Shown: in pieces, positions 44,531 through 64,000 of the stretch | How the letters are laid out: each line of letters opens with the position of its first letter | How positions within the stretch are numbered: the first letter of the stretch is position 1 | Origin: Escherichia coli | GTDB taxonomy: Bacteria; Pseudomonadota; Gammaproteobacteria; Enterobacterales; Enterobacteriaceae | Strand: one strand, 5' to 3' | DNA: 64,000 bases | Assembly (NCBI RefSeq): GCF_016026235.1 | Contig: NZ_CP065613.1 | The notes under the pieces: model-generated | Seen by the model: the letters and a program-made list of their open reading frames with translations, nothing else | Told to the model about the DNA's origin: nothing | Databases searched by the model: none | Position numbers and translations under genes: made by a program

Positions 44531-44965
44531 TCAGCGCACAACCAGCACGGAGCACTCTGCGTGACGCACGACAGCTGCGGCGTTAGAACCGAGCAGATAA
44601 GTGGTGATATCCGGTCGATGGGAAGCAATGATGATCATATGAGCGGGGATCTTCTTCGCCAATTCCAGAATGCGGTCTTTGGGCGAACCTTCCTCAACAT
44701 GGACATGCACTCTGTCGGTTGGCAGTTTAAATTTTTTAATGATCTCTTCCAGTTGCGATTTGGCTTCCGCTTTCAGGTCATCCATTGCCGGTAATTCTGC
44801 GGAATACGCTAAACCCAGAGAGGCATAGTAGGGCAGTGAAGGTATTACCGTCAGGAAATGAACCTCTGCATCATCAATCTTTGCCTCTGCCTCAACGTGG
44901 CTAATCACGCGTTGAGTTAATTCTGAATCGGAAATATCGATAGGGACAAGAATCGTTCTGTTCAT
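44531..44965 (-). CDS. uspF: Universal stress protein F
   Basis: 144 aa from [16 protein letters not shown]; AGGAGG Shine-Dalgarno; track ORF extends further upstream in frame. Confidence 0.9.
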
Positions 44966-45075
44966 AAAACCTCCTGTTTTAGTATCCGCATAAAGTGTAA
45001 CGCCAGATGACACTTTTTGTGTAATGACGGAGTTCACATTTTTAATTTAGATCAAAGGAGGAAGAATAAGCAGAA

Positions 45076-45102
45076 AAAGCCCGCCATAACAGCGGGCAGG
45101 AG
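45076..45102 (-). terminator. Rho-independent terminator of ompN
   Basis: Minus-strand GCCCGC-TGTTATG-GCGGGC followed by TTTTT. Confidence 0.5.
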
Positions 45103-45105
45103 GAT

Positions 45106-46239
45106 TTAGAACTGATAAACCAGACCTAAAGCGACAATATCATCGGTAGAGATGCCGTTGGCAGCGTAGAAACTGTCATCTTCATCCAACAGGTTGATTT
45201 TATAGTCAACATAAGTGGACATGTTTTTATTGAAATAGTAAGTCGCGCCAACATCGGCGTATTTAACCAGATCTTTATCATCAACACCTGCCGGGTTGTC
45301 TGCACCACCGGCAGCGTGCAGGTCACGGCCTTTAGACATCAGGAAAGAGACTGCCGGACGCAGACCAAAATCAAACTGGTACTGTGCAGTGACTTCAAAG
45401 TTCTGGGTTTTGTTTGCAACAGCATAATCGCTGTCGCCAAACGGGGTCATATTACGCGTTTCTGAATACATGGTTGCCAAGTAAATATTGTTAGCATCGT
45501 ATTTTAGCCCAGCAGTCCACGCGTCTGCTTTATCACCACCCGCCGCAGTATGGTTAACCTGGTCATTGGTGCGGTCAGAAGAGGTGTATGCCGCACCAGC
45601 GCTAAAGCCCATGCCTAAATCATATGTTGTGGAAAGACCCCAGCCGTCACCGTTTTCATGGCGAACATCACGTCCGTTGTTGGTGCCTTCCTGACCATTA
45701 CTGGCACCTTCGTTGTTACCTTGATACTGCACCGCGAAGTTCAGACCATTTACCAGACCGAAGAAATCAGTATTACGATAAGTCGCGACGCCATTGGCAC
45801 GACCAGTCATAAAGTTGTCTGCATTGGTATAAGAGTCACCGCCAAATTCAGGCAGCATATCGGTCCAGCCTTCGATGTCGTACATTACGCCATAATTACG
45901 TCCGTAATCGAAAGAACCGTAATCTGAAAATTTCAGTCCGGCAAATGCCAGACGGGTCCATGACTGGTTTTTTGAAGATTCAGTGTTGTTTGCCTGAATA
46001 TTGTATTCCCATTGACCGTAGCCAGTAAGTTGATCGTTAATTTGGGTTTCGCCTTTAAAACCCAGACGCGCATAGCTCTGGTCGCCATCTTTCGCTGAAT
46101 TATCAGAAAAATAATGCAGGCCATCAACTTTGCCATACAGATCTAATTTGTTGCCGTCTTTATTATAAACTTCGGCTGCATGTGCAGCACCTGCGCCGAG
46201 CAGGGCAGGAATTAAAAGTGCCAGTACTTTGCTTTTCAT
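45106..46239 (-). CDS. ompN: Outer membrane porin OmpN
   Basis: 377-aa OmpC/F-family porin with signal peptide, C-terminal LVYQF. Confidence 0.85.
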
Positions 46240-60695: not shown

Positions 60696-60942
60696 TATTA
60701 ACCTCGTCAGATGTTGTGTTCTTGTTAGCAACCGCGCTCTGTGGGCGGTTTAGTCAGGTTCACATTATCAGCACTGATGTAAAGGGGATTGCCTGCACCT
60801 GCCAGGTTGTTTGGCAGGTGTGCCAGCTTTTCATACAGTGGGTGCCCTGAAAATAGATATATACATCATGCATAATGTGACAACGTCACAAAATTTGGTG
60901 AAATAAAAGGGCAACTATTCGCCGTTGCCCTTCATTCACCGA

Positions 60943-62988
60943 TTAATCGACAAAATCACCGTGCTGCCTTGCCACCAGCGTCAGAATTGAATACAGCGCC
61001 ACCGGGGTTTGATGCTGATTGAATACCTCTACCGCCCATTCCACCACACCTGTTGGTTTTTCTTCTGCGCTACGCTGTTTTTTCAGCGTCTTGCGCTTAC
61101 AGGTGAGACGCACCTGGATGGTATCGCCTGGTTTTACTGGCTCGATAAAACGCAAGTTTTCCAGCCCGTAGTTAGCAATGACCGGACCAACTCCGGCATC
61201 GACAAACAGACCCGCAGCCGCAGAAAGCACAAAATACCCATGCACCACACGCTCACCGAAAATAGATTCGGCAGCAGCAATCTTATCCATATGCGCATAG
61301 AAATGATCGCCGCTGAGGCAAGCAAAGTTAACAATATCGGCCTCTGTCATTGTGCGGCGGGGAGTCAGCAGGCTGTCGCCTGGTTGCAGCTCCTCAAAAT
61401 ATTTGCGGAACGGATGAATACGATCTTCTTCGACTTTCGCGCCACGCACCCACTGTTTACTGATAGCGGCAAGCATCGACGGGCTACCCTGTACAGCGGT
61501 TCGCTGCATGTAATGTTTCACCGCCCGTAAACCACCTAATTCTTCACCGCCTCCTGCGCGACCAGGCCCACCATGTACCAGTTGTGGCAGTGGGGAGCCA
61601 TGCCCGGTGGATTCTTTTGCCGACTCTTCATTGAGGATCTGAATTCGCCCATGCGTACGCGCCGCGTCGGCAATAAACTGACGCGCAATTTGCGGATCAG
61701 CCGTCACCAGCGTTCCCGCAAGGCTACCGCCGCCTGCACAAGCCAGTTGCAGAGCATGTTGCTGGTTTTGTGCTGGCATTAGCGTTGCGACAGGGCCAAA
61801 GGCTTCTGTTGCATGTACCGCCGGTGTTTCATCCGGCTGCGGACAGTACAATAAGGTTGGCGGGAAGAAGGCACCCGCAGCAGATAAATCCGCCTGACCA
61901 CCGAGGCGAATCTCGCATCCTGCAGCCAGCAATGTGTTCACTTTTTCCTGCACATCGGCACGCTGCTCAGCATTTACCAGTGCGCCCATTTTCACGCCTT
62001 CCTGCGCAGGATCACCGACCACGACTTTCTGTAATCGCGCAACCAGAGCGTCACTGACAGCATTAACCAATACTTGCGGCACAATAATCCGCCGGATTGC
62101 CGTACATTTTTGCCCGGCTTTTGTGGTCATCTCACGCACAACTTCACGAATAAACAGCGCAAACTCCGGGCGATCCGGGGTGACATCTTCGCCCAGTACG
62201 CAGCAGTTCAGGGAATCAGCTTCCATAGTGAAGGGGATAGATTTGGCTACGATATTTGGCTGAACTCGCAGCATCTGTCCGGTCGCCGCTGACCCCGTGA
62301 AAGTCACCACATCCTGGCTGTCCAGATGATCCAAAAGGTCGCCCGCACTACCGCAGATCAGACTAATTGCGCCTTCGGGAACAAGACCACTATCGACAAT
62401 TGATTTCACCATCGCCTGAGTCAGTTGGGCCGTCGCGGTAGCTGGTTTGATGATGGCTGGCATTCCGCCCAGCCACGTTGGTGCCAGCTTTTCCAGCATT
62501 CCCCAGCAGGGGAAGTTAAAGGCGTTAATATGCACTGCCACGCCTGACTTTGAGGTCAGTACATGGCGCGCGGCAAATCCACCTTCTTTTGATAAGGGGA
62601 TCAATTCATCTTCCGGCCACAGCGTATCGTCAGGCAGCTCCCGGCTACCGAGGCTGGCGTAAGTAAATAACGTCCCAATACCGCCTTCAATATCAACCCA
62701 ACTGTCTGCCCGCGTTGCGCCTGTTTGCGCAGAAAGAGCATAGAAACGCTCTTTTTCACTCAGCAGATGTTTAGCGACCGCTTTAAGCATCGCCGCACGT
62801 TCGATAAAGGTCATAGCGCGAAGGGCTGGGGCACCTTTTTCAATGGCAAACAGGCGGGCAGCCGCCATATCAAGACCTTCACGGGTCACTTCCCATAACG
62901 CCTCGCCGCTAATAGCGTGATGAATCAAACGGCTACGGCCCCGGCCAGACTGCCAGGTACCGGATAAGAAACTGGCTAACTGCTGCAT
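60943..62988 (-). CDS. paaZ: Bifunctional oxepin-CoA hydrolase / 3-oxo-5,6-dehydrosuberyl-CoA semialdehyde dehydrogenase
   Basis: 681 aa: N-terminal aldehyde dehydrogenase domain, C-terminal MaoC-like hydratase domain. Confidence 0.9.
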
Positions 62989-63272
62989 CGCTACTCTCCA
63001 GATGTTTCACATTTCTGTTGCTAATAGTTAAATCACGAATCATAAAAAGCAAGGCGTATTTTAACGAAATGTTAACTGTGCGATCTGTATATCAACTACT
63101 AAAAACATTAATGCACTGATAAATAATGAGTTATAAAAATAGGGTGCGAAATCCGTCACAGTTCAAACATACAAAATTTGTGATTTTAGTTAACCATTGT
63201 GTAACTTTCATAAAACAACATGATTCGTGTTTTTAATTAATTCACGAAAACTGGAATCGTAAAGGTGATGAC
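62989..63272. promoter_or_regulatory. Divergent paaZ / paaA promoter region
   Basis: AT-rich 284-bp intergenic region between divergent paaZ and paaA; regulatory sites not resolved by eye. Confidence 0.35.
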
Positions 63273-64000
63273 GTGACCCAAGAAGAACGCTTTGAGCAAC
63301 GGATAGCCCAGGAAATGGCTATCGAGCCGCAGGACTGGATGCCCGATGCTTACCGAAAGACATTGATCCGCCAGATTGGGCAGCATGCGCACTCCGAGAT
63401 TGTTGGTATGTTGCCTGAAGGTAACTGGATCACTCGCGCACCAACCTTGCGGCGTAAAGCCATTCTGTTAGCCAAAGTGCAGGATGAAGCAGGTCATGGC
63501 CTGTATCTCTATAGCGCCGCCGAAACACTGGGCTGTGCCAGAGAAGACATCTACCAAAAAATGCTCGACGGACGGATGAAATATTCCTCCATCTTTAATT
63601 ATCCGACATTGAGTTGGGCTGATATCGGCGTTATCGGCTGGCTGGTGGATGGCGCAGCGATCGTCAATCAGGTGGCGTTATGCCGCACTTCTTATGGCCC
63701 GTATGCCAGAGCAATGGTGAAAATCTGCAAAGAAGAGAGTTTTCACCAGCGTCAGGGGTTTGAAGCCTGCATGGCACTGGCGCAGGGCAGCGAAGCTCAA
63801 AAGCAGATGTTGCAAGACGCCATTAACCGTTTCTGGTGGCCGGCCTTAATGATGTTCGGGCCAAACGATGATAACTCGCCAAACAGCGCCAGAAGTCTCG
63901 CCTGGAAAATCAAACGTTTCACCAACGACGAACTCCGCCAGCGTTTCGTGGATAACACCGTTCCACAAGTTGAAATGCTCGGTATGACCGTTCCTGACCG
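63273..64000 (+). CDS. paaA: Phenylacetyl-CoA 1,2-epoxidase subunit A, 5' portion (runs off window end)
   Basis: GTG at 63273 then [13 protein letters not shown]...; open to window end. Confidence 0.85.

Follow-up and report, generated by a model that had tools for sequence, protein, structure and literature searches.

The stretch of DNA analysed here (the window) comprises 64,000 nucleotides of the Escherichia coli contig NZ_CP065613.1 (assembly GCF_016026235.1) and holds the right-hand part of a prophage together with the adjoining chromosome. The visible part of this rac-like prophage, which is compared below with the Rac prophage of E. coli K-12, occupies 1..44304, and its left end was placed ~4.9 kb beyond the window start with the related isolate ATM460 as a proxy. 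It is followed by the right attachment site (attR) and by a chromosomal flank from uspF to a partial paaA (44306..64000), which equals K-12 1,434,959-1,454,653 and is collinear with it. A lambdoid structural module on the plus strand (19247-40294, from a DUF1441 TerS-like gene to a DUF4376 gene) and a sitABCD operon lie within the prophage.

Chromosomal flank

The window was compared by blastn with K-12 MG1655 (NC_000913.3, 1,408,000-1,457,000). Positions 44153-63999 were aligned with K-12 1,434,806-1,454,653 as a single collinear block (98.388% identity, 317 mismatches) in which there are 3 gaps, each of 1 bp in an intergenic homopolymer (44440, 46577 and 58410, respectively). The genes uspF to paaZ, 13 in number and each complete, were compared one by one, and all were found at K-12 length with K-12 start and stop codons, with no indels, no internal stop codons and 0-9 amino acid differences per gene. 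These are uspF (44531-44965, 144 aa), ompN (45106-46239, 377 aa) and ydbK (nifJ; pyruvate:flavodoxin oxidoreductase, 46605-50129, 1174 aa) on the minus strand, ydbJ (50403-50669) on the plus strand, hslJ (50666-51088) and ldhA (51199-52188) on the minus strand, ydbH (52396-55035), ynbE (55032-55217) and ydbL (55225-55551) as the plus-strand ydbH-ynbE-ydbL operon (52396-55551), feaR (55723-56628, minus), feaB (56864-58363, plus), and tynA (58422-60695) and paaZ (60943-62988) on the minus strand. The plus-strand paaA (63273-64000) has a GTG start as in K-12 and is cut by the window end after the first 727 of its 930 nt. The micC small RNA gene was located between ompN and ydbK (46464-46584, plus strand; 121 bits to Rfam RF00121, whose gathering score is 90; 99.1% identity to K-12 micC).

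The original prediction for this DNA, which had been made from the letters alone, held that the flank genes keep the K-12 order and orientation without frameshifts, and the alignment to K-12 that it had proposed as a check bore this out. All the genes that it had named were present (paaA partially), while micC and a ttcA remnant described below were missing from its list, and its flank start, 44531, is the stop codon of uspF, chromosomal DNA beginning at 44306.

The flank was matched at 100.000% over 44306-60129 by a contig of the Logan assembly of SRR23867123 (L006), and two NCBI drafts had 1 and 5 base differences, respectively, over ~20 kb of flank; the flank is thus natural sequence. The best flank identity among 5,426 complete RefSeq E. 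coli genomes was 99.1%, from which, set against the 100.000% match of the Logan contig, the complete-genome set was concluded to be without the chromosomal lineage of the window. Since the identical Logan contig has an empty ttcA site, this lineage includes prophage-free members. The flank is ordinary, unremarkable and intact E. coli core chromosome.

Right attachment site and prophage boundary

Homology to prophage-free genomes, in which ttcA directly adjoins uspF, was found to start exactly at 44306 (AHM8C212RI L001 and the Logan contig L006). Directly upstream of uspF the window carries ttcC (44305-44355, minus strand), the former 5' end of ttcA left as an orphan, which encodes MSQNQEISKKEQYNLNK, is identical to K-12 ttcC (b4638) at 49 of 51 positions (96%) and duplicates, as attR, the 5' fragment of ttcA. 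The peptide MSQNQEISKKEQYNLNK is the TtcA N-terminus of empty-site strains. The attR core AAGAAAGAACAATACAAYCTGAACAA sits inside ttcC, and in the alignment of attL, attR and attB the attB sequence was reconstituted from the chromosomal half of attR and the chromosomal half of attL, meeting in AAGAAAGAACAATACAAYCTGAACAA, which corresponds to the published Rac arrangement (PMC4632033). On the prophage side, 152 bp of the right (P') arm (44153-44304) were common to K-12 Rac by blastn. The empty-site homology start, ttcC and the Rac right arm together set the boundary at 44305/44306 instead of 44531.

Three direct GGGGCAAAA repeats were found within 39 bp of the right arm (44163-44201). This motif has 5 matches in the whole window against 1.0 expected by chance, 3 of them in the right arm, and the repeats may be candidate integrase arm-binding sites.

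Rac integration in ttcA is reported to alter four N-terminal residues of TtcA (PMC4632033). In the model published for Rac, a tyrosine integrase of the IntR type would recombine attP, through a core of ~26 bp, inside codons 1 to 17 of ttcA; a replacement 5' end would come from the phage, so that TtcA would then start MQENQQIT..., and the original 5' end would be stranded with its promoter as ttcC beside uspF.

A census of this junction in the 5,426 complete E. coli genomes gave 2,486 with an empty ttcA-uspF site, 494 with a sit-attR-uspF junction and 846 of the K-12 type, the ttcA site being occupied in ~54% of the genomes. Both the occupation of the site and the sit cargo are common and already described, and as such are known biology.

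Left end of the prophage and host lineage

The window starts inside a copy of the IS4-family insertion sequence (IS) ISEc60 (1-718), which truncates a recE-like exonuclease VIII gene (745-2352, 535 aa), and three short-read contigs of other assemblies stop exactly at 719. An exact look-up of the truncated 535-aa RecE-like product led to JAALAC010000002.1 (GCA_014155105.1), a contig of the enteroinvasive E. coli (EIEC) isolate ATM460, which is of serotype O143:H26 and phylogroup E (PMC8354535). This contig showed 0 substitutions and 1 indel over window positions 1-12351, and ATM460 as a whole showed 0 substitutions over 1-38339 and 37648-49720 (~50 kb). From this substitution-free match the host is assigned to an O143-like lineage of enteroinvasive E. 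coli. A Shigella origin, which had been considered for the IS600/ISSfl3 and ipaH sequences in relatives, was rejected on the same match.

Leftward of the window, ATM460 carries the remainder of ISEc60 with an IS transposase gene, gam, an AAA_24 gene, a DUF1233 xis gene, an intR gene for a 411-aa integrase (Arm-DNA-bind_2 and Phage_integrase domains) and attL in ttcA, followed by dbpA and zntB; its TtcA starts MQENQQIT. In a further EIEC genome, VL40, the annotated order is likewise ttcA-intR-xisR-...-recE, and the early region to the right of these genes shares 97% identity with that of the window. The original prediction had placed the prophage at the Rac (ttcA) locus. This placement is direct at attR, where ttcC, the empty-site alleles and the Rac right arm all lie in the window, and is by proxy (ATM460 and VL40) at attL.

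Prophage composition

DNA identity between the window and K-12 Rac (NC_000913.3, 1,411,899-1,434,958) was 93.2% for recE, 90.9% for the kil-sieB region, 95.4% for ydaT/ydaU, 84.4% for the ydaU/ydaV region, 91.2% for rzoR and 96-100% for lom, and the right arm (44153-44305) was also common, so that Rac homology covers the att arm and the early region. Both elements use the ttcA 5' site and have ttcC beside uspF, the 152-bp right arm, early genes and the same flank. K-12 Rac is 23 kb long and has no head genes and few tail genes, ynaA, lomR, stfR and tfaR being all that is kept of its structural region, and it alone has IS5, trkG, pinR, ynaE and ynaM. The element of the window, in contrast, is at least 44 kb long with a complete head and tail gene set, has sitABCD in place of pinR-ynaE-ynaM beside attR, and has ISEc60 and ISEc52 insertions instead of the IS5 of K-12 Rac. 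The prophage is a mosaic in which the att arm, recE, the kil-sieB region, ydaT/U/V, rzoR and lom are as in Rac, with the head-tail set and sitABCD in addition. Because only a few kb match, 'Rac' denotes here the insertion site, the attachment arm and part of the early genes, and not the whole element.

The sitABCD Fe/Mn ABC transporter operon (40495-43944, minus strand) lies between the tail-fibre assembly gene and attR and consists of sitD (40495-41352), sitC (41349-42206), sitB (42203-43030) and sitA (43030-43944). Its intact four genes are predicted to encode a ZnuA-type binding protein (PF01297), an ATPase (ABC_tran, PF00005) and two permeases (ABC-3, PF00950 twice), with E-values of 1e-31 to 1e-86, and the NCBI Prokaryotic Genome Annotation Pipeline (PGAP) names sitA-D in relatives whose operon is 99% identical; the assignment of each single gene has the same Pfam and PGAP basis. 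The operon is, by its predicted content and position, prophage cargo adjoining attR. A sitABCD prophage moron has been described in the adherent-invasive E. coli (AIEC) strain LF82 (prophage Perceval, PMC9928086). A literature search on sitABCD with Rac and ttcA did not find this exact combination and returned only Rac/ttcA biology and the LF82 sit moron.

Sit-carrying lambdoid prophages of VL40, CFSAN029787 and O121 201805972 had the same J-lom-stf-N-DUF4376-sitDCBA-attR-uspF order at 99.3-99.7% identity. The rac-like prophages of PMC4632033, where elements such as Sp10 and CP-933R were given that name, are likewise full-size lambdoid elements in ttcA with a Rac-type TtcA N-terminus in the lysogen, but the paper reports no sit cargo for them, and O157 relatives matched window positions 883-24000 at 88-90% identity over just 44-46% of the length.

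Structural module

The module runs in the order DUF1441 TerS-like gene, TerL, a small gene in the W position, portal, ClpP-capsid fusion, DUF2190 and a connector gene, and then Z, U, V, G, T, H, M, L, K, I, J, lom, stf-N and DUF4376. All 23 genes of an intact reference copy (L005), terminase through tail-fibre assembly, were present in the same order, and the Pfam families assigned to identical genes at sister loci agreed with these assignments. The module of the lambdoid siphophages mEp460, PhiR40_1 and phi458 is collinear with window positions 18748-36613 at ~91-92% identity; these phages have other integrases and att sites, no sit operon and all structural genes open. The module of an FDAARGOS_943 prophage is also collinear, at 97-99.8% identity. 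The head genes belong to the mEp460 type (ClpP-capsid fusion and Phage_cement_2), whereas VL40 has true lambda-type head genes (C/S49 protease, D and E), to which no DNA match of the window's head genes was found. A near-complete lambda-like structural module, as originally predicted, is thus there in gene content, with head genes of the mEp460 kind and not lambda's own.

Frame-breaking lesions

Nine frame-breaking 1-bp deletions were found in the prophage, every one in a homopolymer. Relative to L005, the genes as read are broken in the TerS-like gene (19355), TerL (twice, 19853 and 21770), portal (22969), the ClpP-capsid fusion (24832, G6 to G5, by which the protease/major-capsid gene is split), the tape-measure gene H (30948) and J (twice, 36614 and 36663). 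The ninth deletion (4534, relative to ATM460) shortens a sieB-like open reading frame. Eight of the nine were private to the window, being absent from ATM460 and from the copies of the NCTC assembly GCA_900449985.1; seven of these eight are in structural genes and may be errors, and five of the eight are in G runs. The remaining contraction, at 24832, was also present in the ttcA-side copy A of ATM460, whereas neither the NCTC copies nor FDAARGOS_943 had it; this one could be a genuine mutation that inactivates the gene. ATM460 itself was found without one C at 25615, and the NCTC assembly differed from the window over 17.7 kb in homopolymer lengths only.

After insertion of one G, the portal became an exact match to a protein in 218 blocks of a public collection. 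None of the products as truncated (portal, 339 aa; tape measure, 784 aa; J, 821 aa) was on record when looked up by exact sequence, which argues against lesions shared by a lineage, although weakly, as annotated pseudogenes carry no product. Alignments of J with L005 and VL40 break at 36663-36747; J as a recombinant hybrid was rejected, because J equals the intact 1136-aa J of ATM460 minus two 1-bp deletions.

The module is a within-genome repeat, much of it present at least twice per genome in near-identical form. NCTC copies L015 and L016 matched window positions 18748-33551 at 99.93% or more, the tail-fibre gene was present three times in ATM460, and short-read contigs ended at the module edges. 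Five of the private lesions, together with the shared site at 24832, fall in the segment duplicated in L015 and L016. Uniform sequencing error was rejected, since none of the eight lesions fell in the 22.5 kb of right arm and flank that were compared (P ~0.025), and an error confined to the repeat fits better. With eight indels against no substitutions, all of them contractions and concentrated in the repeat, the eight private contractions are probably unpolished long-read assembly errors in repeated prophage DNA and not decay. Lesions backed by independent assemblies were the ISEc60 insertion, the ISEc52 insertion and possibly the 24832 frameshift.

Connectivity of the prophage in related assemblies

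In ATM460 the ttcA-side half of the prophage runs past lom into a K-12-like stf-tfa-pinR-ynaE-ynaM end with a major facilitator superfamily (MFS) transporter gene, and the tail module to which the sit-uspF half is connected is only 95% identical; the switch point was narrowed to a 692-bp interval in lom (37648-38339). The two prophage halves of VL40 are also split, 600 kb apart. The NCTC assembly has the connectivity of the window, with overlapping segments (L015 and L040) that run unbroken from the early region through J-lom-stf-N-sit to uspF and match the window without a single mismatch between 34.1 and 45.2 kb. The assembly of ATM460, made from PacBio reads averaging 6.1 kb at 17x coverage (PMC8354535), is thereby more exposed to repeat mis-joins; a mis-join and a real prophage-to-prophage inversion are both possible for its arrangement. 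The junction of attR and flank is unaffected by the split, as it recurs everywhere.

The sister genomes also carry (L026/L027, ~14800-20280) a second prophage with a Rac-type right end (stfR-like, tfaR, pinR, ynaE and ynaM), 99.2% identical to K-12, which adjoins an MFS transporter gene and not uspF. Its K-12 homology ends ~190 bp before ttcC, from which the last part of K-12 Rac was taken to be a separate att-arm module.

Interpretation of the locus

With high confidence, the window is read as an intact, K-12-collinear flank that starts at attR of a mosaic, rac-like, sit-carrying prophage, the prophage being placed in ttcA of an EIEC O143-like host and most of its frameshifts being probable errors. 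Several points weigh against this reading. ttcA, intR and attL lie outside the window, and the left junction was seen in other assemblies only; at the DNA level the match of the 44-kb prophage to K-12 Rac amounts to just a few kb; the ttcA-side and sit-uspF halves of ATM460 are ~206 kb apart and inverted, so that physical contiguity either differs between members of the lineage or is a matter of the assembly; the concentration of lesions in the prophage is just modestly significant (P ~0.025 is that of a uniform model); and the error origin, which comes from sequence comparison, is probable and not proven.

An element unrelated to Rac, that is, another lambdoid phage that merely adjoins uspF, would account for most of the 44 kb being without a DNA match to K-12 Rac and for head genes and sit cargo that K-12 does not have, but such an origin is highly improbable, given the same att core and 152-bp right arm, the recE, kil-sieB, ydaT/U/V, rzoR and lom segments at 84-100% identity to Rac, the IntR/XisR-type left end beside ttcA in a sister assembly, and the fact that elements of this kind have already been termed rac-like (PMC4632033). 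It is slightly less improbable, but still very unlikely, that the join of prophage and uspF, or the join of the ttcA-side and uspF-side halves, is an assembly chimera and that the element of the window is not a single physical prophage at the Rac site. The distance between the VL40 halves and the ATM460 joins, in which an identical ttcA-side half continues into the pinR-ynaE-ynaM end and sit-uspF follows the 95% module, are what a chimera would predict; against it stand the sit-attR-uspF junction, which recurs in short-read drafts (L007 and L008), ATM460, NCTC and the 494 complete genomes, the unbroken run in the NCTC assembly, the greater exposure of the ATM460 assembly to mis-joins, and the possibility of a real inversion between prophages. 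A tentative and rather doubtful variant has the EIEC O143-like lineage in two chromosomal configurations, in which lom x lom recombination between inverse lambdoid prophages would flip ~206 kb and some of the contractions would possibly be genuine recent slippage; if true, the flip would part the ttcA-linked half from the sit-attR-uspF half, and the element would be unable to excise in one isomer.

The frameshifts themselves could also be taken as real, the prophage decaying genuinely while selection keeps the chromosome clean, as was implied when the flank was proposed as a baseline against which the prophage lesions stand out. In accord with this, the prophage has nine frame-breaking changes and the 13 genes of the flank have none, homopolymer slippage is the commonest natural frameshift mechanism, the 24832 contraction recurs in ATM460 copy A, and some decay is real, as ISEc60 in recE and ISEc52 (~8.8-10.1 kb) are common to independent assemblies. 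Decay as the source of the frameshifts is nevertheless unlikely, because the other eight lesions are in neither ATM460, with its 0 substitutions in ~50 kb, nor the NCTC copies, because eight indels against zero substitutions are far off natural mutation spectra, because eight one-base contractions, five of them in G runs, are typical of long-read base-calling, because the five duplicated-segment lesions and 24832 lie where short-read polishing fails, and because the truncated products are nowhere on record. Most of the apparent frameshifts would accordingly be read as single-base-run length errors of an assembly in which polishing was not possible for the repeated prophage modules. Polishing works well in unique sequence, so that the clean flank makes a weak baseline, which cannot separate error from decay; nor does it validate the prophage frameshifts, the structural module being a within-genome repeat, and a 'defective' label derived from them would probably be an artefact. 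For the rac-like prophage in ttcA, the result fixes the end (44305/44306), the site (ttcA, the Rac site) and the cargo (sitABCD), and the current view of Rac, of ttcA integration and of the uspF-paa region is unchanged by it.

Further features of the prophage

The IS3-family ISEc52 (~8806-10077) stands in the place of ~0.85 kb (DUF4406 and ead/Ea22-like genes) that is kept in the early region of VL40. A hok/sok locus was located at 12467-12641, and a cluster of four tRNA genes (15833-16140) downstream of the late-region regulator. The C4-antisense/isrK unit (P1/P7-type antirepressor control) was found twice and on opposite strands, at 3645-3833 (minus) and 14814-15015 (plus), respectively.

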